A stretch of 64,000 nucleotides of DNA. Origin: Candidatus Komeilibacteria bacterium (GTDB lineage Bacteria; Patescibacteriota; Patescibacteriia; UBA1558; GWA2-36-10). The stretch is taken from NCBI GenBank assembly GCA_018656065.1, contig JABHZY010000024.1:5227-69226 (forward strand). The letters are read 5' to 3'. The notes below the pieces were generated by a model that was given only the letters and a program-made list of their open reading frames with translations, was not told the origin of the DNA and searched no databases. Of this stretch, positions 2,251 through 51,850 are shown in pieces. Numbering within the stretch: the stretch's first letter is position 1; each line of letters starts with the position of its first letter. A program made the position numbers and the translations under genes.

Positions 2251-3667
2251 ATTTTTTCCTAAGTGGTTGGTAATATTTATAGTTTTAGAATTATTATCTG
2301 GCCTAGCTTGGCGTTTTAACGATCTTAATTGGGTTGTGCTACTTATTATCGCTTTAGTTAGCTTATTTTTTCTTTTTAAAAAACCAATTTATTCTCTTTA
2401 TATACCCTTGGCTGAAATTTTTTGGGGATCATTGGGTCACAGCTTTGATTATAATATTATTAACACCCGACTACTAATATTTATATTAGTAGTGCTAGTT
2501 TTTGTAATTACAAATATACGTCAATTAAATAAGTTAAAACTCTTCAAGGATAAAGCTTTGGGTAGAGTTTATTTGTTTTTATTATTTTTTATATTAGTTA
2601 CTGTTGTATCCGGATATTATAATAGCTATAATCTTAAAAAAGTATTTTTTGATGCTAATGCTTATTTCTATCTTTTATATTTACCTATTTGGTATGAAGT
2701 TTACGATAAAAAATATTTAAAAAATGTATTTGATATATTAAAAGCAGCTGTTTTAGTAATAGCTGTTAAAACCTTAGTGTTACTTAATATTTTTTCTCAA
2801 GGTTATGAATTTATAGATACAGATAGTATCTATAAATGGGTTAGAGACACTAGAACAGGAGAAATTACACCGTTCAAAGATTCTTTTTTTAGAATTTTTA
2901 TGCAATCTCAATTTTATTTAATCTTGGCTTGGTTTTGGTTGTTTTTAAAGCAGATGAAGGATTTCAAGAATAAAAATAGTTTTTTATTACTAGCTATTAT
3001 CTCCGCGGCATTAATGATTTCTTTATCTCGTAGTTTCTGGTTAGGAGCTTTTATTGGCCTATTATTTATAGTGATAAATATTTTTATTTATCAAAAAAAG
3101 CGTATTTCATTTCATATATTTTTATCTTTAGGTGCTGTAGCTGTAGCGGGTATTTTATTGGTACAGGTTTTTTACAATTTACCAATTTATAAAAATATAA
3201 ATATTTTTACACAACGCACAACTAGTGTAGCTGAACCAGCTGCTAATACTCGTAGTCAATTATGGGGACCAATGTGGCAAACAATAGCAGAGCGTCCAGT
3301 AATTGGGCATGGTTTCGGTAAAGAGATTAGTTTTAAATCTTCAGATCCTCGTATAAAAAATGTAGATAATCCTGAAGGCTGGACTACTACTTATGCTTTT
3401 GAATGGGGTTGGATGGATCAATTAGTTAAGGGCGGGGGGATACTAGTCTTATTATTTGTTATTTGGATAATGCAGCTTTATTATCGGGCTTATGTTAGGA
3501 TAACAACTGACCCTGTACTTAGCTTAGTATTAACCGCTACATTGACTAGTTTGCTAATTATTCATATATTTACACCATATATTAATCATCCGTTAGGTTT
3601 AGCATTTTTAATGCTTGTTAGTATAATTTTTGGATCGTATGCAAAAAAAACCAACAGTTACTATTAG
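2219..3667 (+). CDS. O-antigen ligase/polymerase-like polytopic membrane protein
   Basis: 482-aa ORF that is almost entirely hydrophobic helices with one large loop. Sits among GT genes. Confidence 0.7.
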   Translation: MSYFSKEKQNRFFPKWLVIFIVLELLSGLAWRFNDLNWVVLLIIALVSLFFLFKKPIYSLYIPLAEIFWGSLGHSFDYNIINTRLLIFILVVLVFVITNIRQLNKLKLFKDKALGRVYLFLLFFILVTVVSGYYNSYNLKKVFFDANAYFYLLYLPIWYEVYDKKYLKNVFDILKAAVLVIAVKTLVLLNIFSQGYEFIDTDSIYKWVRDTRTGEITPFKDSFFRIFMQSQFYLILAWFWLFLKQMKDFKNKNSFLLLAIISAALMISLSRSFWLGAFIGLLFIVINIFIYQKKRISFHIFLSLGAVAVAGILLVQVFYNLPIYKNINIFTQRTTSVAEPAANTRSQLWGPMWQTIAERPVIGHGFGKEISFKSSDPRIKNVDNPEGWTTTYAFEWGWMDQLVKGGGILVLLFVIWIMQLYYRAYVRITTDPVLSLVLTATLTSLLIIHIFTPYINHPLGLAFLMLVSIIFGSYAKKTNSYY

Positions 3668-4637
3668 TTTACTTACTTGGAATGGTCAAAAGTATTTACC
3701 TTGGCTATTGAAGAGTTTATCTAAACAATCCTTTAAGGATTGGGAGCTTTTGGTTCTTGATAATGCCTCTACTGATAAATCAGTAGATATAATACGAGAA
3801 TATTATCCTAAGGCGAGAATTGTACATCAAAAACAAAATATTGGTTTTGCCAAAGGGCATAATCTACTTATTAATTGGTCTAATTCAGATTATATATTAG
3901 TTTTAAATCAGGATTTGATATTAGAGCCAAATTATATCAGAGAGCTGGTAGATTTTTTACAACAAAATACTAAAGTAGCTAGTTGTAGTGGTAAGTTAAT
4001 GTATTGGAATTTTAAGGCTGGTCTTAAAACTAAGACTATAGATTCTTATGGTTTTAAAATAGATAAAAAAAGAGAAGTGACTGATAGATATCAAGGACGG
4101 TCAGAAATAAAAATTGATAATGAAGAGGTCTTTGGCTTATCAGCTACGGCCACTTTATATAGACGCAAAGCACTGGAGATTATAGCTGGGCAAGCAAAAG
4201 CTAATCATTTTCAATATTTTGATGAAGATTTTTTTGCTTATAAAGAAGATATTGATTTAGCTTGGCGACTTAGATTATTTGCTTGGGAAAATTGGTTAGT
4301 TACTACTACTAAAGCTTATCATCACCGCAGTGTGTCTAAAGGTAAGGATCTTAAAGAGTCTCGTAAGACTAGGGGGTTTGCTAATAAACTTTCTTATCGC
4401 AATCATTTAATGTTACTTTATAAAAATTCTTTTTATAAAAACCTGTTTAAAGATTTTTTAGCTATTAAATGGTATGAGTTTAAAAAATTTGTTTATTTAT
4501 TATTATTTGAAAGAAGCACTCTAGTAGGTGTAAAAGAATATTTTGCTAATATTCCAAGTTTAGCTAAAAAAAGAAAATACATTATGAGACATAGAAAAGT
4601 GAATGCAGATGAAATATATAAATGGTTTGAAAAATAA
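3630..4637 (+). CDS. family 2 glycosyltransferase
   Basis: VTISLLTWNG...VLDNASTDKS and LNQD motifs. Confidence 0.85.
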   Translation: MDRMQKKPTVTISLLTWNGQKYLPWLLKSLSKQSFKDWELLVLDNASTDKSVDIIREYYPKARIVHQKQNIGFAKGHNLLINWSNSDYILVLNQDLILEPNYIRELVDFLQQNTKVASCSGKLMYWNFKAGLKTKTIDSYGFKIDKKREVTDRYQGRSEIKIDNEEVFGLSATATLYRRKALEIIAGQAKANHFQYFDEDFFAYKEDIDLAWRLRLFAWENWLVTTTKAYHHRSVSKGKDLKESRKTRGFANKLSYRNHLMLLYKNSFYKNLFKDFLAIKWYEFKKFVYLLLFERSTLVGVKEYFANIPSLAKKRKYIMRHRKVNADEIYKWFEK

Positions 4638-4638
4638 T

Positions 4639-5445
4639 ATGGAACTTTCAATTGTAATTTTAAATTATAATAATAAAAATTTAGTCAAAGAACTTTTAAA
4701 GAATTTGACAGAATTAAATATTTCATATCAGTATGAGATTATTGTAGTTGATAATGCTTCTTATGATGGCATAAAAGATATTATTAAAGAAAAATTTCCA
4801 AATATTAAATTTATTCAGAGTGACAAGAATGGCGGTTTTGCTTCTGGTAATAATCTTGGCATTAAAGAAGCTCAGGGTAAGTATATTATGATTATGAATC
4901 CTGATTTAGCAATTTTATCTGACGCTATAGATAAACTTTATCAATATATGGAAAATAATCTTGAGGTGGCTTTGGCTGGACCAAGATTAATTAATGCTGA
5001 TAAAAGTGTACAGCCATCTTGTACCACATTACCAGATTGGAAGCTACCAATGTACAGACGCACATCTTTAGCCAATACTAAAGCTGGGAAGAAATGGTTA
5101 GATAAATATTTAATGAAGGATTTAGATCATTATAAAAATAATTATGTCCCAGCTTTGTTTGGAGCTTGTTTAATTTTTCGTCGTGATGCGCTAGATAAGG
5201 TGGGTTTATTAGATGAGCGCTATTTTATGTATTTAGAAGATTTAGATTGGTCTCGTCGTTTTTGGCAGAATGGCTATAAAGTGGCTTATGTTGGCGAAGC
5301 TGAGATTATCCACTTACATCGTCGTCAATCAGCTGCCCAGGGGCTTTTGAAGACATTATTTTCCAAAACAGCTCGTAATCATATTATTAGTTTTGTTAAA
5401 TATCTCCTAAAATTTAAGGGTCAGAAATTACCTAAAATTTCTTAA
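4639..5445 (+). CDS. family 2 glycosyltransferase
   Basis: MELSIVILNYNN...VVDNASYDG and MNPD motifs. The ATG at 4639 sits just after the upstream stop and is preferred to the track start at 4603. Confidence 0.85.
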   Translation: MELSIVILNYNNKNLVKELLKNLTELNISYQYEIIVVDNASYDGIKDIIKEKFPNIKFIQSDKNGGFASGNNLGIKEAQGKYIMIMNPDLAILSDAIDKLYQYMENNLEVALAGPRLINADKSVQPSCTTLPDWKLPMYRRTSLANTKAGKKWLDKYLMKDLDHYKNNYVPALFGACLIFRRDALDKVGLLDERYFMYLEDLDWSRRFWQNGYKVAYVGEAEIIHLHRRQSAAQGLLKTLFSKTARNHIISFVKYLLKFKGQKLPKIS

Positions 5446-5506
5446 TTTTACCTTGATTTATAAGCCAATTTCTTGTATTATTATTTTATAAGAAATTTTT
5501 AAATTT

Positions 5507-7009
5507 ATGGCAAAAAACCAAGAAAAAGAGCTTGATATCAATGATGAATATCAACAAAGATTAGCTAAATTAGATAATCTAAGAGAAGCTAAAATAGACC
5601 CTTATCCAGCCCAAAGTAATAAAACTACTGATGTGGCTGATTTTTTGAAAGATTTTGATAAATTATTAGCTAGCCAGAAGAAAATAATAATTGGAGGTAG
5701 GATTACTAGCTTACGTCTACAAGGTGGTTCCTGTTTTTTTCATTTTCAAGATTATTCGGGAAAAGTTCAAATATTTTTTAGAAAAGATCAGATCGGGGCA
5801 GAGGACTATAAAATTTTTAAAGAAAATATTGATACAGGCGATTTTATAGAAGTGGCTGGTACAGCTTTTGAAACTAAGACTAAAGAACCAACTCTTTTAG
5901 CTACAAGTTGGCAAGTTTTATCTAAGGCTTTATTGTCATTGCCAGATGAGTATTATGGCTTGAAAGATCCTGATCTTAGATTCAGAAAAAGATATTTAGA
6001 TTTATTAGTCAATCCAAAAGTAAAAGATACTTTTAAATTACGTAGCGATGTTATTAAATTGACTCGTCAATATTTTGATAAAGAAGGTTTTATAGAAGTA
6101 GACACTCCAGTTCTACAATCTGTAGCCGGCGGAGCCACCGCTGAGCCATTTATTACTCATCACAATGCTTTGGACATTGATATGTATCTTAGAGTCGCTC
6201 CTGAGTTGTATCTAAAACGTCTGATAGTTGGCGGCTATGATCAGGTTTATGAAATGGCTCGTTGTTTTAGAAATGAAGGTATAGATCATCAACATAATCC
6301 AGAGTTTACTCAAATTGAAGCTTATTGGGCATACAAAGAATATAGCTTTTTGATGGAATGGATGGAAAAATATTTTGAATTTTTAGTAAAGGGTATTAAC
6401 AATGGCGATACCAAAATAAAAAATGCTAAAGATATAATTGATTTTAAAGGACCATATCCAAGACTTGATTTTAAAGAAGCCTTAGACAAAGCTTTAAAAA
6501 TTGATCTTGATAAAACTAGTGATAAAGAATTGGTAGATATTGCTAAGCAAGCTAAGTTAGATGTCGATAAAACCTGGGGTAGAGGTAAGTTGTTAGATGA
6601 ACTGTATAAGAAATTTGTACGTTCCAAACTTATCCAACCAACCTTTATTATCAACCATCCGCTAGAGCTTTCTCCACTATCTAAGAAAATGCCAGATAGA
6701 CCAGGTTATGTAGAAAGATTTCAATTGGTAGTTAAAACTGCGGAACTTTGCAATGCTTTTTCTGAGCTCAATGATCCACTTGATCAAGAAGAGCGTTTTG
6801 CTGAGCAAAAGAAACTTCACGAAGCTGGCGATCAAGAAGCTCAAGGATCTGATGCCGAGTTTGTTGAAGCTCTTAAACATGGTATGCCGCCAACAGTTGG
6901 TTTAGGTGTTGGTATTGATAGATTAGTAATGATGCTTGGTGATATAGAAAATATCAAAGAAGTTATTTTATTTCCAACTATGAGACCAAAAAATAATGAA
7001 AATAAATAA
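5507..7009 (+). CDS. lysS: lysine--tRNA ligase (class II)
   Basis: 500 aa. OB-fold N-terminus and class II motifs including CFRNEGIDHQHNPEFTQIE and GVGIDRLVM. Confidence 0.97.
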   Translation: MAKNQEKELDINDEYQQRLAKLDNLREAKIDPYPAQSNKTTDVADFLKDFDKLLASQKKIIIGGRITSLRLQGGSCFFHFQDYSGKVQIFFRKDQIGAEDYKIFKENIDTGDFIEVAGTAFETKTKEPTLLATSWQVLSKALLSLPDEYYGLKDPDLRFRKRYLDLLVNPKVKDTFKLRSDVIKLTRQYFDKEGFIEVDTPVLQSVAGGATAEPFITHHNALDIDMYLRVAPELYLKRLIVGGYDQVYEMARCFRNEGIDHQHNPEFTQIEAYWAYKEYSFLMEWMEKYFEFLVKGINNGDTKIKNAKDIIDFKGPYPRLDFKEALDKALKIDLDKTSDKELVDIAKQAKLDVDKTWGRGKLLDELYKKFVRSKLIQPTFIINHPLELSPLSKKMPDRPGYVERFQLVVKTAELCNAFSELNDPLDQEERFAEQKKLHEAGDQEAQGSDAEFVEALKHGMPPTVGLGVGIDRLVMMLGDIENIKEVILFPTMRPKNNENK

Positions 7010-11487: not shown

Positions 11488-11516
11488 TTGACAATATAAA
11501 ACCTAAGCTTTATAAT
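11488..11516 (+). promoter_or_regulatory. sigma70-type promoter giving a leaderless recombinase mRNA
   Basis: TTGACA(11488-93), 17 nt, TATAAT(11511-16). The ATG at 11523 lies only 6 nt after the -10. Confidence 0.6.
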
Positions 11517-11522: not shown

Positions 11523-12479
11523 ATGGTTAAAACAAATAAAAAGTATCAGCTTCCCCTCTTAGATGAGTATCTTGAAAATATTCAGTCTAATAACTACTCT
11601 ACTGAGACGGTCTACAACTATGAAAGAGACTTAAATACTTTTGAAAACTTTTTAGAGAGTGATATTAAAACAGAGTTTAAGAAATTAACTAAGAGGTCTA
11701 TTATAAAATTTAAGGCTTACCTATCCTCTACTTCTAGAACTACTGCTTCAAATGAAGTTGGTGAAAAAAAATTATCGAGTTATAGTATTAATCGTATACT
11801 GTCAGCCTTGCGTTCTTATTTAAAATTTTTAATTGACGTAGATTATAAAACTCCTGTGACTGCTGATGCTGTTAAGTTGCTTAAGACGGAAAAGAAGTAT
11901 GGGCAAGTACCAGAGATGAATCAATTGATTACTTTGATAGAAGCACCAAGTAAATTTGAAACTGATCCAACTATTAAGTTGCGTAACCGAGCAATGCTTG
12001 AAACTTTATTTGCTACTGGTATGCGTATTTCTGAGCTTCTTTCTCTTAAGCGTGAGCAACTAGATAATACTGGACGTATCTATGTAATGGGCAAAGGTAA
12101 GAAACAGCGTTTTGTTTATTTAACTCCTCGAGCTATCAAACATATTAAAGATTATTTAGCTACGCGTCATGATAGCACACCTTATATTTTTATTCCTTAC
12201 AGGGGTTTAAATAACGCTGATAAGAATAAAAAGATATCTACTAATTATTTGCAATCAAAAATAAAAAGATACAGAGAACTCTTGGCTATTAATATACCTA
12301 TATCAGCTCACTCTATTCGTCATAGCTTTGCTACCTATTTGGCCGAAAACGGCGCTAATCCGGCAGCTATTCAAATACTACTAGGACATGAGTCATTAGA
12401 TACAACTACTCGTTATGTACACGCTAGTGACCGTTATGCAGAAAAAATGCATACAGATTTCCATCCTCTCAAAAAATAG
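11523..12479 (+). CDS. tyrosine recombinase, XerC/XerD family
   Basis: N-terminal SAM-like domain. Catalytic region ATGMRISELLSL...HSIRHSFATYL...LGHESLDTTTRYVH (R-H-R-H-Y pattern). Confidence 0.88.
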   Translation: MVKTNKKYQLPLLDEYLENIQSNNYSTETVYNYERDLNTFENFLESDIKTEFKKLTKRSIIKFKAYLSSTSRTTASNEVGEKKLSSYSINRILSALRSYLKFLIDVDYKTPVTADAVKLLKTEKKYGQVPEMNQLITLIEAPSKFETDPTIKLRNRAMLETLFATGMRISELLSLKREQLDNTGRIYVMGKGKKQRFVYLTPRAIKHIKDYLATRHDSTPYIFIPYRGLNNADKNKKISTNYLQSKIKRYRELLAINIPISAHSIRHSFATYLAENGANPAAIQILLGHESLDTTTRYVHASDRYAEKMHTDFHPLKK

Positions 12480-12552: not shown

Positions 12553-12581
12553 TTGACAAATATTAATATCTATGTTATAGT
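12553..12581 (+). promoter_or_regulatory. promoter of RNA A
   Basis: TTGACA, 17 nt, TATAGT. Confidence 0.65.
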
Positions 12582-12587
12582 GAGTAA

Positions 12588-12710
12588 TCACCCAAGGAAG
12601 GTGAAACTTATCTGGACCAGCAAAGTCCAAAAGATCCCCCGCTGCTGGCGTTCGTCCCCCGTTTTCTCCTCACATGGAGAATTCTAGAACGCCAGCAGCC
12701 CCCCTTTTTT
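12588..12710 (+). ncRNA. orphan GC-rich small RNA A (about 123 nt), family unknown
   Basis: Starts downstream of a consensus promoter. Hairpins CACC/GGTG and TGGAC/GTCCA. A 13-bp stem (12641-53 / 12687-99) encloses a CUCC/GGAG hairpin. Ends in T6. No ATG ORF with an RBS. Confidence 0.55.
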
Positions 12711-12759
12711 ATAAGGGTTTTTTGTTTATTTAAAAATTTAGCTAAAATGAAAAAAGGGA

Positions 12760-22269: not shown

Positions 22270-23759
22270 AAACCTAAATATTTACCAAGCATCAATCTAG
22301 TTTGAGCATCTATAGCTGGTATAGAACCAAATATTATCATAGTAATTGGAAATATAATCCACTGTAATAACATTAGCAAATATTTAAAAGGTTTCATAAT
22401 TCTGGAACCTCTTTGTTTTGGCGGTATTGGCGGTAAGATAAATACACTCATTAAGGCAATTAAAATCATACCCACCATTCCAGAACGCATTAAGTTTTCT
22501 AGCATCAAAGGCGCGTTTTGAGTTAAGACACTAGTTAAGCCTTGTTTTTCAGCTAAATATAGAGGCAAATAACCCATGATAAATATTAACATTGGTGCAG
22601 TAGCCCAAGTATACACTCCTTCGGTCTGGTTCCAAGTATAAACCAATTTTTTATTGAAGGGCATTTTTTTATTTTTAGCAAATTGCCAAACCATATATGG
22701 AAAATGTTCTACTCCGTAAGCCCAACGACGCATTTGTTTATATTGATTTACCAAACTACGCCAGATATTCCCAACGTAAACAGTGTTCATTGATACAGGG
22801 ATATGCATTGGTTCTACTTCATAGTCACCATCATAATGTATCAAGCATTGTAAAAATATACGAGAGTCTTCAGTTACTATATTATTTTGCCAAAATCCAA
22901 TATCTACTAGTGCTTGCCAACTCATTGAATGGGAAGAAAAAGTAAATAATCTTTCTGGACGAGCCAAATCAGTTAATAACCAAAAAGTAGTGGAGTTAGC
23001 TACTACTCTAGTAATTGGATCAGATTCCCAAATGTTATTATGATAAAAAGCCATTGGTTGAAAAGAGGTTCGGTATGGATTTTTATGTGAAATAAATTTA
23101 TGGGTCAAGTAAGCAAAATAGTCTGGATGAGAAATAGTATCTACATCAAAAGCTGAGACAATAAGTTTTTTATAATCAAAACCTTCGGCATCAATATATT
23201 TTTTAACCTCATATCCAGCATGATAAAGATTAGAGCCCTTGCCTTTAATTTCGCCTTCTAAATTATCAGGATGAACAGTTATGATTATTTTATGAAAAAT
23301 ATCTTGGTATTTTTCTTTTATTTTATTAGCCAGAGGAACAAATTGTTCTTCATAACGACCCTCTCCAGCTAAAATTATTATCATTTGTTTTTGATCGTAT
23401 TTAGTTTTCCTAGCCAGATTATTAAAAGTAACATCAACAACCTCAAATGGCTCACCAGCAGTGGGTAAAAATACAATATGATGATATTCACGCCAGTGTT
23501 TATTGTGAGTATGTTTTAGAAATTGCCACCAGTCTACTTTAGTAGCTCGCCTATATTTAAACCAAGAAAGTAATAAAAATATAAGCATATAAGTAATACG
23601 CAAAACAAAATAGACATCAAAAATTATAACAAAATATATACCATATAATGGTGAGATAAATGATAGAGATATGGTAATAATAAAAGTAAGCCAGACCATC
23701 ATGCCAGGCATTATTTCTAGATTTCTATACTTATAATAGTCTTTATATTCTTGTTTCAT
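22239..23759 (-). CDS. membrane-embedded processive family 2 glycosyltransferase
   Basis: Multiple TM helices. FDVDT and TEDSRIF motifs plus the Q-x-x-R-W signature (QYKQMRRWAYG). Confidence 0.8.
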   Translation of the reverse strand: MKQEYKDYYKYRNLEIMPGMMVWLTFIITISLSFISPLYGIYFVIIFDVYFVLRITYMLIFLLLSWFKYRRATKVDWWQFLKHTHNKHWREYHHIVFLPTAGEPFEVVDVTFNNLARKTKYDQKQMIIILAGEGRYEEQFVPLANKIKEKYQDIFHKIIITVHPDNLEGEIKGKGSNLYHAGYEVKKYIDAEGFDYKKLIVSAFDVDTISHPDYFAYLTHKFISHKNPYRTSFQPMAFYHNNIWESDPITRVVANSTTFWLLTDLARPERLFTFSSHSMSWQALVDIGFWQNNIVTEDSRIFLQCLIHYDGDYEVEPMHIPVSMNTVYVGNIWRSLVNQYKQMRRWAYGVEHFPYMVWQFAKNKKMPFNKKLVYTWNQTEGVYTWATAPMLIFIMGYLPLYLAEKQGLTSVLTQNAPLMLENLMRSGMVGMILIALMSVFILPPIPPKQRGSRIMKPFKYLLMLLQWIIFPITMIIFGSIPAIDAQTRLMLGKYLGFWVTEKKKVK

Positions 23760-24835
23760 AAACTATACCGATCACTTTCTATGCCAACTGCCTCAGAAAT
23801 ATGTTTATAATTATCGTGTTGAATTATATTTTCTAGTTGTCTGTTTATGATATTTACAGCAGTAGGGCCATTATAAATTAGGCCCGTAATTAATTGCACT
23901 AAATTGGCACCAGCTTTAATTTTTTTGTAGGCATCATGTCCTGAAAAAATACCACCTGTTCCTATAATTTTATATTTACCTTCACTATGTTGATAAAGAT
24001 AAGCAATTATTTCATTAGATTTATCTCTGGTAGGCTGACCTGAAATACCACCTGGTTTATCTTGATTCTTTGATTTTAGATTTAAACTAGCTTTATCCTT
24101 AGCTAGATTAGAAGCAATAATAGCACTAATATTATATTTCTTAGCTAAATAAATAATATCATCTAGCTCTTCTTTGGACAAATCTTGACCAATTTTTAAC
24201 CAAATTGGCTTTTTAGATTTATTTATAGATTGTATTCTGTCTAAAATTGGTTCTAGTAATTTTTTTGACTGCAAACCAGTAAAACCAGCTACATTTGGAC
24301 AAGAAAGATTAATAGTAACAATATCAGCATGTTCTGCTAATATTTCAAAGCTAGCCTGATAATCATCGGCTGCTTTTTCCATAGCTACATTACTAGTTTT
24401 AGCAATACTAGCAGATATTAAAGCAGTTTTTGTTTTAAGTACCTCGGCTATTTTTTTAGCGCCTTGGTTGCATAAGCCATAATAAACAACTAAAGCTTTA
24501 TCTTTTGGTAGTCTCCAAAGCCTAGGCTTTGGGTTGCCTTCTTGGGCTTGATGAGTAATAGAGCCAATTTGAGCCCAAGCAAATCCCATAGCTGACCAAG
24601 TATTGATAGCTTTACCATTTTTGTCTAAACCAGCTGCTAAGCCAACTGGATTTTTAAAGTATAAGCCAAATAATTTTTGACGTAATCTAGGTGAAGTATA
24701 GTTTAACCTAGATTTTAATAACTTATTTAATAATTTTGATTTACTAAAAAAAGATAAGCCCCATAATGTAAAATCATGGATTTTTTCTGGATCAGTTAGA
24801 AATAGAATGGGTCTAATAATTTTTTGGTAAAACAT
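23756..24835 (-). CDS. pyrD: dihydroorotate dehydrogenase, class 2 type
   Basis: 359 aa with the N-terminal extension of class 2 enzymes. NLSCPN and GTGGI motifs. Confidence 0.92.
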   Translation of the reverse strand: MFYQKIIRPILFLTDPEKIHDFTLWGLSFFSKSKLLNKLLKSRLNYTSPRLRQKLFGLYFKNPVGLAAGLDKNGKAINTWSAMGFAWAQIGSITHQAQEGNPKPRLWRLPKDKALVVYYGLCNQGAKKIAEVLKTKTALISASIAKTSNVAMEKAADDYQASFEILAEHADIVTINLSCPNVAGFTGLQSKKLLEPILDRIQSINKSKKPIWLKIGQDLSKEELDDIIYLAKKYNISAIIASNLAKDKASLNLKSKNQDKPGGISGQPTRDKSNEIIAYLYQHSEGKYKIIGTGGIFSGHDAYKKIKAGANLVQLITGLIYNGPTAVNIINRQLENIIQHDNYKHISEAVGIESDRYSL

Positions 24836-25111
24836 TTATTTTTGTAAAATTTCTTTTAATTTTTTTAAATTCTCAGCCATAATTTTAACATAAAGATCTT
24901 TTATGAAATCAGGGTCAATATTATTTTTTTTAGCCCAAAGAGTGATATTTTCTTTTATTTCTATTTCCCTTTTAAAATCACGAATATTATCAGGATCCTT
25001 ACATTTAGCTACTTCCTCCATTAAGGATAGCCTAATGGCTAGGCTTTTGATAATTAGTTTATCTGCTTCGTCTATTTTTTCCCTAATTTTAGCTATTTTA
25101 TCTTGTGACAT
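24836..25111 (-). CDS. chorismate mutase (AroQ class, stand-alone)
   Basis: 91 aa. IREKIDEADKLIIKSLAIRLSLMEEVAKCK is typical of the AroQ helix 1. Confidence 0.75.
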   Translation of the reverse strand: MSQDKIAKIREKIDEADKLIIKSLAIRLSLMEEVAKCKDPDNIRDFKREIEIKENITLWAKKNNIDPDFIKDLYVKIMAENLKKLKEILQK

Positions 25112-25172
25112 ATTGAAAATAAGTAGCTATAATCTACCAGAAAAGCGATTATTTTTCAAGGGGTTTTATTGT

Positions 25173-25201
25173 TTGACAGAAGAAAATTTTAGGAATATAA
25201 T
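25173..25201 (+). promoter_or_regulatory. promoter of RNA C
   Basis: TTGACA, 17 nt, TATAAT (exact consensus). Confidence 0.7.
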
Positions 25202-25207
25202 ACAGCA

Positions 25208-25358
25208 ATTCAAGAGTACATGTTCAAGGAACAGAACGAGGAAATTAGGTGGGGCCTTTCCTTAGTTGGCTATTTAGTGAGCATCGGCACAGGCCACTGC
25301 TCGTTTTATCCAACGAAACGTACTCGGCTGCGTACGTTGTTCTGTTCCTCTCTTTTTC
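25208..25358 (+). ncRNA. orphan GC-rich structured RNA C (about 150 nt, four-way junction), family unknown
   Basis: Closing stem 25228-38 / 25335-48 with one G.U valid only on the plus strand. Three internal hairpins: AGGAAA/UUUCCU, GUUGG/CCAAC enclosing GAGCA/UGCUC, and ACGUAC/GUACGU. A U run follows the closing stem, and a second hairpin lies at 25362-84. Confidence 0.55.
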
Positions 25359-25401
25359 TATAACCAAGTCCTATGGGCTTGGTTTTCACTGTAATCAAAA
25401 A

Positions 25402-25419
25402 AGACTCACTAAAGAGTCT
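25402..25419. terminator. bidirectional terminator
   Basis: AGACTC-actaa-GAGTCT hairpin flanked by A and T runs. Overlaps the NUDIX gene stop. Confidence 0.6.
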
Positions 25420-25876
25420 TTGTTTTTATATTATGTTTTATTACTTGGTCTTTTTTGCCAAGTAGGAAATCAGCTTCGAATTTTTTATTTTCTAGAAATA
25501 CAGGAAACCAATATTGAGCATCGTTCCACATTTTTTTGTAGGGAATATTATCTAAATCAAACCACTTAGGTTTCATTTCTTCACTCTCCTCTACTAAGCC
25601 ACTAAAATTATCACAATGAAAAACATGCATTTCCAAATCTTGATCTTTATCTTGCCAAGAAAAGTCTATTATAGCTACCGGCTCCAAAGATTTTATTTCT
25701 AGAGAACATTCTTCAAATACTTCACGCCTAGCGGCCTCTTCTATACTCTCACCAACTTCAAGTTTACCGCCAAAACCATTTGTCTTGCCCACGCCGAAGC
25801 CTCTTTTCTTAAGACCTAATAATATTTGATTATCTTTAGTAATTAAAACTAGGGTTAGTACAGTTTTTTTAGGCAT
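25409..25876 (-). CDS. NUDIX hydrolase (MutT-like)
   Basis: Nudix box GGKLEVGESIEEAARREVFEECSL. Confidence 0.9.
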   Translation of the reverse strand: MPKKTVLTLVLITKDNQILLGLKKRGFGVGKTNGFGGKLEVGESIEEAARREVFEECSLEIKSLEPVAIIDFSWQDKDQDLEMHVFHCDNFSGLVEESEEMKPKWFDLDNIPYKKMWNDAQYWFPVFLENKKFEADFLLGKKDQVIKHNIKTKTL

Positions 25877-27142: not shown

Positions 27143-29857
27143 TTATTTACCATGGCATTTTTTATATTTCTTACCACTACCACAGTAACAAGGATCGTTT
27201 CGGCCAATACGCTTACCAGTCTCATCAATTGGTTTATTAGATACAGCAGGATTAGCTTGTGAACGATTAGCTACTTGTTTTTGGAAAGGTTGATAGCCTT
27301 GTTTTTGTTCTTCAAAAACTTTTTGACTCTCCCCTGGTTTAGGACCAGAGGCTACTGTATTTCGTTTCAAGTTGACTTTAAATATAGAATAAACTATTTG
27401 CTTTCTAATTGCCTCTAGTAATTGATTAAACAAATTAAAAGCCTCGCGTTTATATTCAATTAAAGGATCTTTTTGGCCATAACCTTGTAAACCAATTCCA
27501 GTTCGAAGTTTGTCCATAGCAGTTAAATGCTCTACCCATAAAGTATCAATACTTTTTAGAACAATACTGCGCTCAATAATTTGCATTGGCTTCCAAGTAT
27601 CATCTTGTAAATCAACATTAGCATTAATATCTTCGGTTAAGGCTAAATATTTATTTTTAGCAATGGAATTAATATACTCAATTACTTTATCTCTATTGTC
27701 ATGAGAATTACTTTTGCCGTTTTGAGTTAAAAGTTCTTTAATTTTAATTTCTTCTTCTGATTCTAAAACAAAAATTGATTTTAGAGTTTCTAAAATTTCT
27801 TTAGGATCAAAGTCACCAGTATTTTTTTCACCCAGCGTATGGAATGAAACTACACTTTCAATTTCTTGATCAACATATTCTAGTACTATATCTTGAGAAC
27901 TTTTTTCAGTCTTATGTTCTTTGTCAGAAAATATTTCAAGTAATTGTTGGCGAGAACCATAAACTACTTGGCGATGTTTGTTAATTACATCATCATACTC
28001 TACTAAGTGTTTTCTAATATCAAAGTTATGGCCTTCCACTTTTTTCTGAGCAGATTCTATAGAATTGGAAATTAATTTATTTTCTATAGGCATATCTTCA
28101 GCAATACCTAGTTTATCCATCATATTTTTCATACGATCTGAGCCGAAAATACGCATCAAATCATCTTCCATAGAAATATAAAATTGAGATGAGCCAATAT
28201 CACCTTGACGCCCAGCTCGACCACGGAGCTGATTATCAATACGACGTGATTCATGACGTTCTGTGCCGAGAACATGTAAACCACCTAATTCAATAATCTC
28301 ATCACATTTAGCTTTATCCATTGGTGAACCACCTAAAATAATATCTACACCACGGCCAGCCATATTAGTAGCTACTGTAACAGCGCCTTTGCGACCAGCT
28401 TGAGATATAATTTCAGCTTCTTTTTCATGAAATTTAGCATTCAATAAATTATGTGGAATACCAGCTTTTTCTAATAATTTGCCAAGTTCTTCATTTTTAT
28501 CAATAGAAATTGTACCAACCAACACCGGTTGACCCTTATCATGACGTTCTTGAATTTCCCTGACAATTGCTTTTAATTTGCCACGATAAGATTTATAGAT
28601 TTTATCTCCTTGATCGTCTCTAGAAAATGCTTTGTTAGTTGGAATAACAGTCACATCTAAATTATAAATCTTAGCCATTTCTTCTGCTTCCGTAGCTGCT
28701 GTACCTGTCATACCTCCTAATTTTTTATACATCCGGAAGTAATTCTGAAAAGTTACTGTAGCTAAAGTCATACTTTCCTTTTGAATTTCTACTCCCTCTT
28801 TAGCTTCAATAGCTTGATGTAAACCTTCACTATAACGACGACCAGGCATCATACGGCCAGTAAATTCATCAATAATAATTACTTCATTATCTTGAATTAC
28901 ATAATCTCTATCTTTGCTAAATAAAGTTTTAGCTTTTAAAGCTGATTCTATATGATGGACACTTTCCATACCATGACTTTCATATATATTGTCCACGCCC
29001 AAAGATTTTTCCATTTTACTTACACCCTCTTCAGTTAAGGTGCAAGCTTTCATTTTTTCATCAATATTATAATCTTCATTTTCTTTGAGAGTTTGAATCA
29101 TTTGAGCAAATTGTCCATAACGATCTGTAGATTGATCAGCTGGAGCAGATATAATTAATGGAGTTCTAGCTTCGTCAATTAAAACACTATCAACTTCATC
29201 AATCAAAGTATAGTGTAAACCACGCTGAACTTGTTTTTCACTATCTTGGGTCATGTTGTCTCTTAGATAATCAAAACCAAATTCATTATTAGTACCATAG
29301 GTAATATCAGCTTGGTAAGCCTCCTTTCTTTCTACTGGACGTAGAGAATCATCTTCACTTGTGTCATAAACAAAAGCACTGTCATGAGCAATTACACCAA
29401 TGCTAATACCTAAAAAATCATAAACTTTTGCCATCCAAACAGCATCACGTTTAGCTAAATAATCATTTACAGTAATAACGTGTACACCTTTATCTGATAA
29501 AGCATTAAGATAAACTGCTAAAGTGGAAGTAAGAGTTTTACCCTCCCCTGTTTTCATTTCAGCAATCTGACCTTGATGTAAAACAATGCCTCCTAAAATT
29601 TGTACATTATAATGCCGTTGTCCCAAAGTACGTTGAGCAGCAACTTTTATAAGGGCAAAAGCCGGCACCAGGACATCATCCAATTTGGTACCGTCTTGTA
29701 TTTGCTTTTTTAGATTTAGACTTTCTTTTTTTAATTCGTCGTCGTTGAGTTTGAGAAATTCCTTTTCTTTTTCGTTTATAGCATCAACTTGTGGTTGTAA
29801 GCTTTTCAAGAATTTTTCATTCGCATCGCCAAATAGTTTATCTAGAAATTTTAACAT
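27143..29857 (-). CDS. secA: preprotein translocase ATPase SecA
   Basis: 904 aa. MKTGEGKTL Walker A, DEVDSVLIDEARTPLIIS, and the C-terminal zinc motif CYCGSGKKYKKCHG. Confidence 0.98.
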   Translation of the reverse strand: MLKFLDKLFGDANEKFLKSLQPQVDAINEKEKEFLKLNDDELKKESLNLKKQIQDGTKLDDVLVPAFALIKVAAQRTLGQRHYNVQILGGIVLHQGQIAEMKTGEGKTLTSTLAVYLNALSDKGVHVITVNDYLAKRDAVWMAKVYDFLGISIGVIAHDSAFVYDTSEDDSLRPVERKEAYQADITYGTNNEFGFDYLRDNMTQDSEKQVQRGLHYTLIDEVDSVLIDEARTPLIISAPADQSTDRYGQFAQMIQTLKENEDYNIDEKMKACTLTEEGVSKMEKSLGVDNIYESHGMESVHHIESALKAKTLFSKDRDYVIQDNEVIIIDEFTGRMMPGRRYSEGLHQAIEAKEGVEIQKESMTLATVTFQNYFRMYKKLGGMTGTAATEAEEMAKIYNLDVTVIPTNKAFSRDDQGDKIYKSYRGKLKAIVREIQERHDKGQPVLVGTISIDKNEELGKLLEKAGIPHNLLNAKFHEKEAEIISQAGRKGAVTVATNMAGRGVDIILGGSPMDKAKCDEIIELGGLHVLGTERHESRRIDNQLRGRAGRQGDIGSSQFYISMEDDLMRIFGSDRMKNMMDKLGIAEDMPIENKLISNSIESAQKKVEGHNFDIRKHLVEYDDVINKHRQVVYGSRQQLLEIFSDKEHKTEKSSQDIVLEYVDQEIESVVSFHTLGEKNTGDFDPKEILETLKSIFVLESEEEIKIKELLTQNGKSNSHDNRDKVIEYINSIAKNKYLALTEDINANVDLQDDTWKPMQIIERSIVLKSIDTLWVEHLTAMDKLRTGIGLQGYGQKDPLIEYKREAFNLFNQLLEAIRKQIVYSIFKVNLKRNTVASGPKPGESQKVFEEQKQGYQPFQKQVANRSQANPAVSNKPIDETGKRIGRNDPCYCGSGKKYKKCHGK

Positions 29858-32216: not shown

Positions 32217-32309
32217 ATTATTATAATTCAAAAAATTTACTGTTTTTACAGTAAATCTGTATATATTTTAGTAAATTATAGCTTAAAAGTCAACTTATTT
32301 TAGTAAGTT

Positions 32310-32610
32310 AAAAACCCTGTCAGAGTACGAAGAAGCTGAAAGGGGGTTCAGCAGCTCGTTGATCACGAAGTGATCCTCTGACAGGGTGTGTCGTGGTGGA
32401 CCTTGATTAGGTTCCGCTCCGCTCTGATCGTGTGGCAGCGCTAGGCAATTTATTACCTAAATCAAGGTCCAACTATATTAATAGGGTCATCGGTGGAGGT
32501 CTGCTATAGCTGCTGGATCTAAAAGATCCATTGGCTTGGGTGCGTACACAGCCACAGCCACAGCCTCATGGAGGAGAGAAAGACACATCGATGACCCAAG
32601 AACATATAAC
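32310..32610 (-). ncRNA. orphan GC-rich structured RNA D1 (about 300 nt, three domains); strand tentative
   Basis: Three domains: an 11-bp stem 32315-25 / 32376-86 closing a three-way junction; a 15-bp stem 32398-412 / 32455-70; and a 12-bp stem 32484-95 / 32586-97. On the minus strand it is preceded by TTGACT-17-TATACT and ends in U5. One G.U in the third stem favours the plus strand instead. Confidence 0.45.
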
Positions 32611-32616
32611 CGAGCC

Positions 32617-32645
32617 AGTATATATTATATACTAAAGATAGTCAA
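32617..32645 (-). promoter_or_regulatory. candidate promoter of RNA D1
   Basis: TTGACT(32645-40), 17 nt, TATACT(32622-17) on the minus strand. Confidence 0.4.
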
Positions 32646-32661
32646 TATCTAGCAAATAAAC

Positions 32662-33120
32662 AAAAAAAAGTACCGGTCCCCCGCGTGAAATACGAGGGAC
32701 CGGCGAGAAAGGCTGCTACGAGCAAGCGTCGACGGGTTGAAGTATATTCTCTCCAGTTGGGACAGGATACCCCGGTCGGAGTTTGAGTCAACAGACAACA
32801 TGCTGGGGTCGCAAATCCCAGCGCTCCTTGAAACGGTCCTTGAAGGACCAGGTGCTTGCTTGCAATAGCAGCCACTTACAGTGGCCATCGCATTTTGATT
32901 GAATAGATCTGAGAGAGACGCCGGCGTTCCGTAGAACAGGTGTGATATGCTAGTCAAAGGCGCTAGCAGGCACACTGATGGTCTTGTCTCCCTATCCAGG
33001 GCAATCGTAAATTGATGGTCACTACCATCGTGTCGTATCTCCGTATTCTCGGACTTGTTTTTCCCTCCTAAGAAGTGTATTATGACACGCTGGCTTTAAA
33101 ATTGATGAACCCTTCTTGAC
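32662..33120 (-). ncRNA. orphan GC-rich structured RNA D2 (about 460 nt), family unknown
   Basis: Minus-strand promoter at 33127-56. Many local hairpins, including GAUGGU/ACCAUC, GCUAG/CUAGC, GCCAC/GUGGC, GGUCC/GGACC and GCUGGG/CCCAGC. An 11-bp terminator stem (32673-32703) has a U.G valid only on the minus strand and is followed by U8. The ORFs in this region run through the terminator. Confidence 0.55.
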
Positions 33121-33126
33121 TATTTA

Positions 33127-33156
33127 ATTTTAGACTAAACAAAGTAATATTGTCAA
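33127..33156 (-). promoter_or_regulatory. promoter of RNA D2
   Basis: TTGACA(33156-51), 18 nt, TAAAAT on the minus strand. Confidence 0.6.
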
Positions 33157-33373: not shown

Positions 33374-33413
33374 GTTTTTCGTCACTATCACTCTAGAGCC
33401 AAGGAGGGCCACA

Positions 33414-33626
33414 ATGCCCTGTACACTCAGCAAAGGTCAAGATGTTCGGAATATTGGAACTGGTGAAGCCCATATTATCACTGATATGCGCAAAACTCCT
33501 CCTCGTCAAATTGTTGGAGGTTGGGGGTCTGATGTCGTAGAATATACTCACATCCAGGTAGATGGGCAAACTAACAACGATGGGCATCCGGTTTGGCAAG
33601 CCTCTGGTGATTTCGAAGAAATCTAA
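33414..33626 (+). CDS. orphan GC-rich small protein (70 aa)
   Basis: Strong SD AAGGAGGG 5 nt before the ATG. Protein-like composition. Own terminator. The GTG at 33300 in the track is an unlikely start. Confidence 0.7.
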   Translation: MPCTLSKGQDVRNIGTGEAHIITDMRKTPPRQIVGGWGSDVVEYTHIQVDGQTNNDGHPVWQASGDFEEI

Positions 33627-48589: not shown

Positions 48590-50356
48590 TTAAAATTTGA
48601 TAACTTCACCAGGATCTAAATCCTTAGCTACCCTATCTTCTGTTTTTCTAATTTCTTTGCTTGGTTCTTTAATTTGTTTCTTAACTTCTTTCTTAGTCTC
48701 TACTGGCTTAATTTTAGATTCTTCTCTTTTTACAGAAGGCTTTCTACCTTTTAAAGCGTCTGCTAAAGAAGTAAATTCTTCCTCTTTGCCATTGTCAGAA
48801 ATTATTTTAATACTAGAAGGAGGTGGAACTTTACCAGCCCTAGAAAGATCTAAACATTCTCGACAATAGATAGGCTTTTTAGGATCTGGGTCAAAATTTA
48901 TTGTGGTGTGTTTACCACATAAGTCACAAACTACATTTTTGGTAAAACCTGTGTCTTTTGGTTTGCGTTTTCTTGGCTTTTTTTCTCTGTTAGTAGTTTC
49001 TGTTGTTTTAGAAACAACTCTATCGGCAGTTTTAGCAACTGTGCCAGTGGCTGGTACATTCACATCTTCGTCTCCTCTGCCCTCAGCCCAGCGAATAATT
49101 CTATCTTCTATTACTTCTCTTGGTTTGGCATATCTCTCACGAGTAATATTAATTATTTTATCTTTGACACCTGCAGCCTCTTCGGTCATGGCCACTGGTG
49201 GCAATGTTTTAGCAGAAAAACCCTCTGAAGTAACACCATCAATCATTAATTTAATATAAATTTCAAATTTAGAAAGATTAACTAAATCTTCTTGAGTAAA
49301 AGTTGGAAAAAATTCTTTTTCTAAAAACTCAGCGTCAGCTGCACCAACTCTAAAATTGACTATAGTACCAACATTACCAAACACAGCAGCTGTCATTTCT
49401 TCAGGAACTTGTTCAATATATTGATGGGCAATAATAAGATTTAGTTTATATTTTCTAGCTTCAGATAATATATTAGCAAATGACTCAGTAGCAAAATTTT
49501 GAAATTCATCTACATATAAGTAAAAATCTTTTCTTTCTTCTTCTATAGTATCTACTCTACTCATAGCAGCTAATTGGATTTTAGTAATCATCATAGCTCC
49601 TAGCAAGGCTGAATTATCTTCACCAACTCTACCTTTAGAAAGATTTAACAGCAAAATTTTCTGACCATCCATAATCTCTCTCATATTGAAAGATGATCTA
49701 ACTTGGCCTAAAATATTTCTAATCAAGGCTGATGACAAGAAACGGCCAACCTTATTTTGAATAGGTGCTATGGCCTCTGCTTGAAATCTATCAGGATACT
49801 TACTATATTCATCTACCCAAAAAGCTTTAACAACAGGATCAGATATTTTTTCTACAACTTTTTTCCTAAAAGCTTTATCAGTCAACATTCTCATAATACC
49901 TAAGAGAGTTGAGCCAGGATATTCTAATAAAGCTGAAATGGCGTGATGCAGTACATATTCTAATCTTGGCCCCCAGGAATCAGCCCAAATCTTTTGAAAT
50001 ACACCGATTAATCCCGATACTACCAAATGCCTTTGACTAGCATCTACTTGTTCTAAAACATTAAAACCAATTGGAAAATCCAAGTCAGCTGGATTGAAAT
50101 ATATAACGTCATTAATACGTTCGCGTGGTACAAAATTAATGACTTTTTCTACTAAATCACCATGAGGATCTACTACACAAACACCTTTTCCATCTTGAAT
50201 ATCTTGGATAATCATATTTTCCAAAACAGTAGATTTACCCATGCCAGTTTTGCCAATAAAATACATATGGCGACGTCTGTCATCAGTTTTAATTCCAAAT
50301 TTTACATTGGAATTTCTATAATTTGTTTCAGCAAAAATTGTTATTTTATCATTCAT
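48590..50356 (-). CDS. TraD/VirD4-like (type IV secretion coupling-protein family) P-loop ATPase with C-terminal zinc ribbon and Lys-rich tail
   Basis: Walker A GKTGMGKS and Walker B LYVDEFQNF. CDLCGK...CRECL at residues 477-502. Confidence 0.8.
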   Translation of the reverse strand: MNDKITIFAETNYRNSNVKFGIKTDDRRRHMYFIGKTGMGKSTVLENMIIQDIQDGKGVCVVDPHGDLVEKVINFVPRERINDVIYFNPADLDFPIGFNVLEQVDASQRHLVVSGLIGVFQKIWADSWGPRLEYVLHHAISALLEYPGSTLLGIMRMLTDKAFRKKVVEKISDPVVKAFWVDEYSKYPDRFQAEAIAPIQNKVGRFLSSALIRNILGQVRSSFNMREIMDGQKILLLNLSKGRVGEDNSALLGAMMITKIQLAAMSRVDTIEEERKDFYLYVDEFQNFATESFANILSEARKYKLNLIIAHQYIEQVPEEMTAAVFGNVGTIVNFRVGAADAEFLEKEFFPTFTQEDLVNLSKFEIYIKLMIDGVTSEGFSAKTLPPVAMTEEAAGVKDKIINITRERYAKPREVIEDRIIRWAEGRGDEDVNVPATGTVAKTADRVVSKTTETTNREKKPRKRKPKDTGFTKNVVCDLCGKHTTINFDPDPKKPIYCRECLDLSRAGKVPPPSSIKIISDNGKEEEFTSLADALKGRKPSVKREESKIKPVETKKEVKKQIKEPSKEIRKTEDRVAKDLDPGEVIKF

Positions 50357-50359: not shown

Positions 50360-51850
50360 TTAAGCAGTTGGTAAATTAGGTGGTGCTTGACCCTTATGCC
50401 TAGGAGCTTCGATAGTTGCTGTGTCTTTTTTAGCAAATTTTTCTTCAAAATGTTTATCTGATAAATCAACATTAAAATTAGGTGTAACTAATTGTCTAGT
50501 TAATTCTTCACTAACTTCACTTTTACCAACTTCTTCTAATTTATTAACTGGTAATGATGAAGGTGGTTCAGATTTCTTAGTTTCAGTACGTTGTAATAAT
50601 GGAGCTTTAACAAACTTACTTGGAAAATGCCAAATAGTAGCTAACTCTTCTGTATTTAAAATAAAATAATTATGTCCTCTGGTACCACTACGATTTTTAT
50701 AGCCAGCCATCAATCTCTTTCTACGCCAAGCTGTACGAGTTTTTATAAAGAAATAATTAATTTTGGTCTTAGTTTTTTTATCTGGCATAAAAGAATTAAG
50801 ATCCAGGGTATTAAATTGTTTGATAGAACCAAAAACAGAAGATATTACTCTGGCTGGAGCATACAATTCTTTTGGAGAAATATATATCAAACGAATTTTA
50901 CATTCAAAACCAGTTTTACTAGCCTTTTTTTCTATAGCTTCTACAGCTCCTTTTTCACCTGGAGTAAGGTGAAGCATTAAAGATGGCATATCATCCTTAG
51001 TCTTACTAGCTGGTGAGGCAGTCAAATCTTGCGGCCAGATCATAGGCTCTCCAGTAGACAAGAAAAATAAGCTCGTAATAGGATCAAATACCCTATTAAA
51101 AAAACCTTTCTTTTCAGTAAACTTTTTTCCAGCTATTTTATAAGCTTCTTTCATACTACGTTTTGGCCAACCAAAACCCGTTGGTTTAACCAAAATTTGA
51201 AACCAAACCTGTTCACCAATTTGGATTTTACTCATTGTTTCTAGCATTGAAGCTAAAGGATCTTTGAATTCACCAGACACAGCATCTTCAAACTCTGTAT
51301 AAGTTCTGATAGGATAGGCTTCATTCTCGGCCAAAATTACCTCTGCACCCCAAATGTTATGAGTGTCATTTGGATAATCATCGGGCGTATCACCTACATA
51401 GTCTTCTACTTCAGTAATCTCTGCATCTGGATACTGAGAATAAATAGAACTTTCTATCAAATCACGATATTGACTAGGAGTTCTTATCAAAAATTGTACA
51501 TAACCATCAATACTAACTATTTCAAAGGTAAAACTAAGTTGAAAATTTCCATCTCTATATATTTCCAAGAGATTTAAGGGGCTATGAGCACCTGATACTG
51601 TAGAAAAAAGTTGCTCTACAGCCTTTGGAGTCTGTTCAGTATCTTTTGGCACATCAATAGCTAAAATGACAAATTTTTGAGTTCCAAACCATTTTAAACT
51701 TTGTCTAAGATGCCAAATTTCAAATATACCTCGAGAAATTACAATGAAATAAATAAGCCAGCCTCCATTTTTGAAGAATAACCAAGCTACTGCACCAAAG
51801 CCTTGGTCCATAGCTGCGTACAATGCTGAAAAATCTAAAGTTAATTCCAT
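50360..51850 (-). CDS. membrane protein coupled to the TraD-like ATPase
   Basis: 496 aa with N-terminal TM helices. Its stop lies 4 nt from the ATPase start. Confidence 0.55.
   Translation of the reverse strand: MELTLDFSALYAAMDQGFGAVAWLFFKNGGWLIYFIVISRGIFEIWHLRQSLKWFGTQKFVILAIDVPKDTEQTPKAVEQLFSTVSGAHSPLNLLEIYRDGNFQLSFTFEIVSIDGYVQFLIRTPSQYRDLIESSIYSQYPDAEITEVEDYVGDTPDDYPNDTHNIWGAEVILAENEAYPIRTYTEFEDAVSGEFKDPLASMLETMSKIQIGEQVWFQILVKPTGFGWPKRSMKEAYKIAGKKFTEKKGFFNRVFDPITSLFFLSTGEPMIWPQDLTASPASKTKDDMPSLMLHLTPGEKGAVEAIEKKASKTGFECKIRLIYISPKELYAPARVISSVFGSIKQFNTLDLNSFMPDKKTKTKINYFFIKTRTAWRRKRLMAGYKNRSGTRGHNYFILNTEELATIWHFPSKFVKAPLLQRTETKKSEPPSSLPVNKLEEVGKSEVSEELTRQLVTPNFNVDLSDKHFEEKFAKKDTATIEAPRHKGQAPPNLPTA

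Follow-up and report, generated by a model that had tools for sequence, protein, structure and literature searches.

The 297-bp spacer separating two minus-strand genes of a Candidatus Komeilibacteria bacterium, the chorismate mutase gene (24836-25111), which is followed by DHODH in the same operon, and a NUDIX gene (25409-25876), which is the last gene of a secA-hyp-hyp-NUDIX-NUDIX string, holds an element with a GC content of 0.50, versus 0.26-0.28 in the flanking spacer and 0.32 in the genome. In this respect the element resembles the tRNA of the window, not the spacer (the window is the whole stretch of 64,000 nucleotides that was analyzed; GC, 32%). What is this element, and where did it come from? 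We lean, by a little, toward the reading that 25162-25390 is a candidate gene for a young, single-copy, stand-alone structured small RNA (sRNA) of one Candidatus Komeilibacteria species. The genes flanking it are all on the minus strand, and the candidate RNA would be read from the plus strand.

The plus strand carries a sigma-70-type promoter, TTGACA-17-TATAAT, at 25173-25201 (TTGACA at 25173-78, TATAAT at 25196-201), which matches the consensus at 12/12 positions and is exact, as an earlier sequence-only reading of this DNA had claimed. Base composition leads one to expect ~0.07 promoters of this quality per 64 kb, counting both strands, and ~2e-4 per 230-bp insert; the window has two, the second (at 11488) belonging to a leaderless integrase gene whose ATG follows after 6 nt. 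Promoters with at least 11/12 matches number 13 in the window versus ~5 in shuffles, and they stand ahead of several GC-rich non-coding islands, among them the Rfam-less islands A, B, and E described below. Judging from the usual spacing of 6-8 nt past the -10 box, the consensus promoter would start a transcript near 25208. No minus-strand promoter overlapping the RNA was found in the promoter scan.

The predicted transcript would end at a terminator-like hairpin at 25362-25388 (plus strand; 10 bp at 25362-84, loop UAU, then UUUUCAC), giving a small RNA of ~181 nt (25208-25388), or of ~221 nt if it ends at a second terminator near 25428. The terminator scan left the hairpin at 25362-84 unflagged, and its U tract is short (four U). 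The scan did flag, on both strands, a bidirectional intrinsic terminator at 25400-25421, which is common to the convergent NUDIX operon and kept in relatives, and which may serve the small RNA as a back-stop. Between the folded core and the first hairpin lies a pyrimidine-rich single-stranded linker, CCUCUCUUUUUCUAU (25347-25361, plus strand), with the pyrimidine/U run CUCUCUUUUUCU directly 3' of the closing stem, so that the earlier description of a U run followed by a second hairpin was accurate. The ORF list agrees with that reading that no plus-strand gene follows: on this strand >8 kb separate the cassette from the next ORF that reaches 90 aa or more, and the convergent NUDIX gene comes first. 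With no regulated gene downstream on the plus strand, the element is indeed not an obvious cis-leader. As far as sequence signals go, the locus has what an sRNA gene should have, namely its own promoter and its own terminator on one strand and no downstream cistron.

The RNA is predicted to fold into a rigid four-way junction at 25227-25349 (plus strand), in which a closing stem brackets the three arms H1, H2, and H3, consistent with the earlier proposal. The closing stem (25227-37/25339-49) has 11 nt on each side that are 100% complementary, with pair probabilities of ~1.0. H1 (25238-63, loop AUUAGGUGGGGCCU) carries the G-rich loop that had been noticed before, AAUUAGGUGGGGCCU, at 25243-25257. 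H2 (25265-314) is a hairpin arm whose internal loop (25272-25312) consists of AUUUAG (25272-77) and UUUAUCCA (25305-12) flanking an upper hairpin with the apex UCGGCACAG (25284-92), and H3 is a hairpin arm at 25317-38. The junction leaves just 0-2 nt unpaired, and its pair probabilities are near 1. In addition, AAGAG of the 5' leader (25212-25216) is predicted to form an outer helix with CUCUU (25350-25354) at a pair probability of 0.7-0.9, and this helix covers the sole Shine-Dalgarno-like word before an ATG at 25220. The minimum free energy of 25205-25390 is -65.4 kcal/mol (z -5.5), which beats all 200 dinucleotide shuffles; the z of the core alone is -4.3. All helices are perfect Watson-Crick runs, as expected of young inverted repeats. 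The sequence-only reading had also suggested two conformations, with GAGUAC pairing with GUACUC as the alternative. Both words exist; the pairing costs +15.5 kcal/mol and has an ensemble probability of ~0, so that the two-conformation idea is thermodynamically negligible under the folding model.

The strand cannot be read from the fold alone, because the fold of the minus strand is just as stable (z -5.4 and -5.8). We assign the RNA to the plus strand because of the promoter, the terminators, and five G-U pairs on that strand, which would become A-C mismatches if the minus strand were read.

The alignments with the loci of relatives show that 25162-25390, ~230 bp, is a lineage-specific cassette. 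A DHODH-based locus search puts the window in Candidatus Komeilibacteria (Patescibacteria/CPR), and the DHODH identities of the nearest genomes are 88, 83, and 78%. In four related Patescibacteria loci the NUDIX terminator and the chorismate mutase promoter directly abut, and it is on this ground that we regard the cassette as a discrete lineage-specific indel; it appears to enclose exactly one plus-strand transcription unit, complete from promoter to terminator. In L002 (junction CAAGG-TCAAT-AAAAGGCTC) and in L045, 2-5 nt stand in place of all of 25162-25390, the junction being CAAGG-CT-AAAAAAGACTC in L045 and L046; in L039 (junction CAAGG-TTTA-GCTTGATTTTCACTTTATC-AAAAAAGACTC), TTTA stands in place of 25162-25376. 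A JGI locus has NUDIX and then DHODH with 115 bp between them, and in L001 the NUDIX and chorismate mutase/DHODH sides are adjacent without the cassette. Overall, the synteny of DHODH, chorismate mutase, and NUDIX relatives showed the element to be absent from L001, L002, L003, L039, L043, L045, and L046.

L039 is the closest relative (NUDIX, 88% aa identity; ~92% nt identity over 2.7 kb of aligned flank), and it retains the 3' arm and the U tract of the RNA's own terminator. Because L039 keeps this 3' remnant, the alignment suggests that the cassette predates the split from the L039 lineage and was deleted there, possibly between the CAAG microhomologies at 25157-60 and 25365-68. That four lineages are without the cassette argues that it is a recent gain and dispensable. 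In L039, other genes (2957-6960) occupy the place of chorismate mutase-DHODH: directly behind the 30 nt that are left of the chorismate mutase promoter come a Condensation-domain gene, two hypothetical genes, and genes for a 199-aa tyrosine integrase and a DEAD/ResIII helicase. The deletion in L039 adjoins this integrase-bearing island, and the site is a rearrangement hotspot.

Within the species, the near-identical strain contigs L040-L042 (NUDIX, 99% identical) carry the spacer, and the cassette is 100% identical, with no strain-level variation, in the eight contigs of this species that cover the full spacer; these come from five independent metagenome samples. The identity tract extends for >3.7 kb at 100% and is common to a strain that is 12-18% divergent just left of 24400. 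This identity says nothing on selection, because it lies inside a recombination tract. The co-occurring strain (L029/L030/L035) is 12-18% divergent at 22400-24400 and has one mismatch from ~24400 to at least 28111; its breakpoint falls within the DHODH gene, and the near-identical stretch, which includes the RNA cassette, is a recent homologous-recombination tract or else a chimera of the assembly.

The element appears to belong to no known RNA family and is, in kind, an orphan bacterial sRNA candidate. A search of Rfam 15 at the gathering threshold, which had been proposed as a check in the earlier reading, gave no match at the element, and no known family accounts for it; the sole match in the window was a tRNA-Gln at 61092-61162. 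When E values up to 10 were accepted for 25050-25500 (4227 families), no match went beyond the outer few bases of 25208-25356, and all were at chance level. ARAGORN found no tRNA or tmRNA at the element, reporting in the window only the tRNA-Gln (61089-61162). BLAST against phages and plasmids returned chance matches of 35-39 nt only. Six codon-degenerate patterns tiling the RNA had no match in viral contigs, and in JGI metagenome contigs they matched only the identical copy L038; the cassette is single-copy in the window as well as in the JGI metagenomes. Searches with a covariance model of the single sequence and its fold gave nothing significant in viral stretches, in the window (no paralogue), or in the loci of relatives. 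The 14-mer ATTAGGTGGGGCCT of the G-rich loop had 108 matches in viral contigs, and these were rejected as homologues: they are mostly an unrelated terminator hairpin of one phage family, GGCCCTACC-ATTA-GGTGGGGCC, of which the 14-mer is the 3' arm.

Several other identities were considered and rejected. A MITE or IS-derived element does not fit a single-copy sequence with no terminal inverted repeats, and the 4-nt CAAG direct repeat mentioned above equally fits a microhomology deletion in L039. IS200/IS605-type, bridge-RNA, retron, and DGR elements were set aside, as there is no recombinase or reverse transcriptase within several kb and there are no end structures. The promoter region as a direct repeat of the 5' part of the RNA was not significant, and pairing of the G-rich loop with the C-rich motifs of RNA A was no better than in shuffles.

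A clue to the origin of the element comes from secA, 3 kb away. A coding segment of secA at 28257-28320 (minus strand; codons ~513-534; ...MDKAKCDEIIELGGLHVLGTER...) has clustered exact words in common with the RNA. The H1-loop word AATTAGGTGG occurs three times in the window versus 0.15 expected, one of these being within secA, and the H1-loop sequence AAUUAGGUGG is identical to secA mRNA 28290-28281. The 34 nt of secA mRNA from 28290 to 28257 read AATTAGGTGG-TT-TACATGTTC-TCGGCACAG-AACG. The words of this stretch lie in the RNA at 25217-25 (TACATGTTC, 5' leader), 25231-38 (ACAGAACG, closing stem), 25243-52 (AATTAGGTGG, H1 loop), 25284-92 (TCGGCACAG, H2 apex, which equals secA 28269-61), and 25323-28 (CTCGGC, H3 loop). 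Together they cover 32/34 nt of the stretch, and no other site in the window comes close. Such coverage was reached by 2/1000 dinucleotide shuffles of the core (p ~0.002) and by 9/1000 shuffles of the whole RNA. The order of the words is scrambled in the RNA and their chromosomal orientation is inverted. They fall in three different reading frames, and therefore the relation to secA is one of nucleotide sequence and not of protein.

Most of the words common to the RNA and secA are sense, not antisense. Sixteen nt upstream of the word stretch, secA UGGAUAAA-G-CUAAAU (28320-28306) is the exact complement of both strands of the H2 internal loop, and this bipartite 14-nt complement is unique in the window. 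Among the common words are the codons CTC-GGC; of the Leu codons here, 2.5% are CTC, and CTC-GGC is 1/116 Leu-Gly pairs in the window, whereas secA of the relative L001 has the usual TTA-GGT at this place. The match is thus specific to the secA allele of this species, which points to sequence copying between the two loci after the L001 split. For the L039 lineage, the protein search for secA gave distant, partial SecAs only. The secA mRNA itself could form a 7-bp hairpin at 28257-28277 (minus strand), AUGUUCU-CGGCAC-AGAACGU, and one of the three synonymous changes versus L001 turns a U-G wobble of its stem into a C-G pair.

We read the secA link mainly as evidence of origin, a 34-64-nt piece of the nearby secA being the probable source, or exchange partner, of part of the cassette, and mimicry of secA mRNA by the loops is a secondary possibility. 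On the preferred reading, the RNA would be a trans-acting, protein- or RNA-binding sRNA, the leader and loops of which might offer secA-mRNA-like words as a decoy or mimic; this mechanism is a working guess in which we place low confidence at most. A classical antisense repressor of secA seems less likely. Cofolding of the RNA with secA mRNA gave a ddG of -7.4 kcal/mol, which ranked 123 of 1278 windows and is not outstanding, and no antisense promoter was found inside secA. A weak and borderline lead to another target comes from the H1 loop. Its sequence AAUUAGGUGG has a perfect 10-nt complement at 50374-50383 (minus-strand mRNA), upstream of a gene for a TraG/VirD4-like coupling protein (48590-50356) and 18-27 nt before its start codon; the predicted duplex of -18.5 kcal/mol is better than those of 100/100 shuffled loops, and this candidate target was the sole standout in a scan of translation-initiation regions, which covered 64 kb only.

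The secA words bear equally on whether the cassette has a function at all. It may be a neutral recent insertion, made when template switching or patchwork repair synthesis copied nearby DNA, secA included, in direct and inverted orientation, with any transcription being incidental. Hairpins and de novo miRNA genes are documented to arise by template switching and by inverted duplication of nearby or target sequence (PMC8794818, PMC10710096), and an element that is lineage-specific, single-copy, and homologue-less, that contains short exact secA words scrambled and inverted 3 kb from their source, that has perfect Watson-Crick helices fitting young inverted repeats, and that folds equally on both strands would fit such an event. 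However, only ~45 of the ~125 core nt trace to secA, the GC-rich helices are undecayed in a strongly AT-biased genome, and a 12/12 promoter that is well placed and well oriented and is followed by terminators is very unlikely to arise by chance in 230 bp. We consider that a neutral insertion has a small yet real chance of being the right account.

A bolder version of the sRNA reading joins origin and mechanism. The gene would be newly born by template-switch copying from secA and then fitted with a consensus promoter; its loops and leader would act as a mimic or decoy for a factor on secA mRNA, which would be a protein, an RNase, or an antisense RNA; and CTC-GGC would be the trace of sequence exchange or co-evolution. 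Taken as a whole, this scenario strikes us as rather improbable.

Could the transcript be an mRNA? The cassette contains an ORF of 47 aa, which begins with ATG and runs from 25220 to 25363 on the plus strand, inside the RNA. It was absent from the earlier reading, which had listed a long GTG ORF (25249-25569); the latter is present as described and is spurious. If the 47-aa ORF were translated, the RNA would be the mRNA of a type-I-toxin-like peptide or small membrane protein, the start of which is masked by 5'-3' pairing. The ATG lies ~12 nt past the predicted transcript start, behind a leader that, like those of other genes here, is AU-rich and has no Shine-Dalgarno sequence, and that lies within the AAGAG/CUCUU helix. 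The peptide is acidic at its N-terminus and semi-hydrophobic in the middle, and it contains a basic stretch. Gene starts in the window are in general without Shine-Dalgarno sequences, at a promoter-to-ATG distance that varies from 0 to 26 nt, and an argument against the ORF from the geometry of its start site was dropped on account of this variation. Several window genes begin 6-7 nt past the -10 box, which suggests leaderless mRNAs; the integrase gene mentioned above is one with a perfect promoter (11488-11516) and its ATG at 11523.

The composition of the ORF, in contrast, is not that of a gene. Its GC1/GC2/GC3 values are 0.40/0.44/0.54, whereas GC3 is 0.17-0.25 in eight neighboring genes and GC1>GC2>GC3 holds in seven of the eight. 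A HMMER search against 1.84 billion representative proteins found no small-protein relative, and gave spurious matches only, to proteins of 958-2659 aa, mostly repetitive or with several matched stretches. No gene caller called the ORF in any contig. The hydrophobic stretch of the peptide has a Kyte-Doolittle mean of ~1.0 over 19 residues, which is below that of a transmembrane helix, and no antisense promoter overlaps the locus. The 47-aa ORF is probably not a native coding gene, a coding role being unlikely, and we find it quite doubtful that the RNA acts as a peptide mRNA.

The position of the cassette raises the question of action in cis. The chorismate mutase-DHODH promoter, TTGAAA-17-TAGATT (25131-25159, minus strand), is divergent from and back-to-back with that of the cassette, the two -35 boxes being 13 bp apart, and it is kept in L002, L045, and L039. 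The cassette promoter might modulate chorismate mutase-DHODH by supercoiling or by competition for RNA polymerase, or read-through might be antisense to NUDIX-secA, with the fold mainly stabilizing or terminating the transcript. The back-to-back geometry and the two tandem terminators guarding the convergent NUDIX genes fit such a role. Yet relatives run the same operons without the cassette, and an elaborate four-way junction is unneeded for the purpose, which makes action in cis very improbable to our mind. Scarcely credible is a function of the minus strand, as a structured spacer or leader in read-through of the NUDIX operon into chorismate mutase: the minus-strand z values and the minus-strand orientation of all flanking genes favor it, but the NUDIX terminator (25421-25400) comes first on that strand, no minus-strand promoter is found ahead of the element, the conserved promoter of chorismate mutase itself lies downstream, and the five G-U pairs would be lost to A-C mismatches.

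We therefore return to the stand-alone sRNA gene. It is favored because a consensus promoter at this place has so small a probability by chance, because the fold is far more stable than that of shuffles, because the bounds of the indel coincide with promoter and terminator, because the ORF inside is without a codon-position GC gradient, and because there is no Rfam, tRNA, or tmRNA match. It is weakened because the element is absent from the four related lineages examined and could be neutral, because no homologue was found in the phage, plasmid, viral, and JGI metagenome collections or in the loci of relatives, because the minus strand folds as well, because its own terminator has only four U, because an ATG ORF behind a short leader without a Shine-Dalgarno sequence resembles other gene starts here, and because cofolding gives no outstanding duplex with secA mRNA.

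Among known systems, the cassette resembles in design the sRNAs of the RsaE/RoxS type, which are stand-alone, Hfq-independent sRNAs of low-GC bacteria with a C-rich main loop. Like them, it has its own sigma-70 promoter and intrinsic terminator, a compact multi-hairpin form (100-200 nt) richer in GC than the genome, and a pyrimidine-rich single-stranded stretch before the terminator. Unlike them, it has a G-rich main loop and a core that is a closed four-way junction, it is present in one species only, the genes here have no Shine-Dalgarno sequences to target, and there is no similarity by sequence or covariance model. The plan of a closing helix with three arms over ~125 nt followed by a terminator is also that of the SAM-I riboswitch, twister-sister, the hairpin ribozyme, and tRNA-like cloverleaves, and the near absence of junction nucleotides recalls the four-way-junction aptamers and ribozymes of Rfam. 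The cassette differs from these in having no Rfam match at E<10, no ARAGORN match, and no downstream gene.

With type I toxin mRNAs of the hok, fst, and aapA1 type the cassette has in common that the ORF is short, that the RNA around it folds very stably, and that the 5' and 3' ends pair across the region of the start; but the peptide is weakly hydrophobic (hydropathy ~1.0), GC3 (0.54) is non-coding, and there are neither protein relatives nor an overlapping minus-strand, antisense promoter; a type I toxin-antitoxin system was rejected on these grounds. Hairpin and miRNA genes born by template switching share with the cassette a lineage-specific structured locus, perfect stems, and inverted exact pieces, here from the nearby secA. 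The cassette differs from them in that the host is a bacterium, that it has a multi-arm junction and its own consensus promoter, and that the copied words lie mostly in loops.

The window contains, in all, five strongly promoted, strongly folding RNA candidates without an Rfam family. Cassette A (12553-12712, plus strand) combines a TTGACA-17-TATAGT promoter with a GC-rich RNA of 125 nt, which contains three CCCCC motifs and ends in a 13-bp terminator and U6 (z -5.5; no Rfam match at E<1), and it adjoins the leaderless tyrosine-recombinase gene at 11523-12479. Cassette B (13004-12740, minus strand) has a TTGACA-17-TATTAT promoter and a multi-hairpin RNA of ~230 nt that ends in GGGAUC...GGUCCC and U6 (z -3.8; no Rfam match). 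D and E are tandem minus-strand GC-rich RNA candidates upstream of alaS, at 32300-32645 and 32650-33156, respectively. D is ~310 nt long and ends in a long hairpin and U5 (z -7.4; no Rfam match at E<1); E is ~470 nt long, with a TTGACA-18-TAAAAT promoter and a 13-bp terminator followed by U8 (z -4.7; no Rfam match at E<1). E contains GGAGGGAAAAACAAGUCCGAG, which is loosely like the P4 strand of RNase P, and no RNase P model matches it. At 33401-33626 (plus strand) there is a GC-rich ORF of 70 aa (ATG at 33414) with a strong AAGGAGG Shine-Dalgarno sequence ahead; this sequence is found before essentially none of the other ~60 genes, and the ORF may be foreign DNA.

We found no publications on regulatory RNAs of Candidate Phyla Radiation bacteria, and the field appears to be little studied. 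A relative with ~92% identity in the flank allows the gain or loss of the cassette to be dated, and a neighboring essential gene accounts for part of the cassette sequence. Through this dating and the secA-derived words, the birth of an sRNA gene in an uncultured phylum can be put to the test; what speaks for a function are sequence signals. If the cassette proves non-functional, it would mean that repair synthesis readily makes look-alikes of RNA genes, a caution for the discovery of non-coding RNAs from GC islands in AT-rich genomes. Transcription and function, if borne out, would make the cassette a clean bacterial case of recent sRNA gene birth and would give a handle on secA-linked regulation in an unculturable organism.
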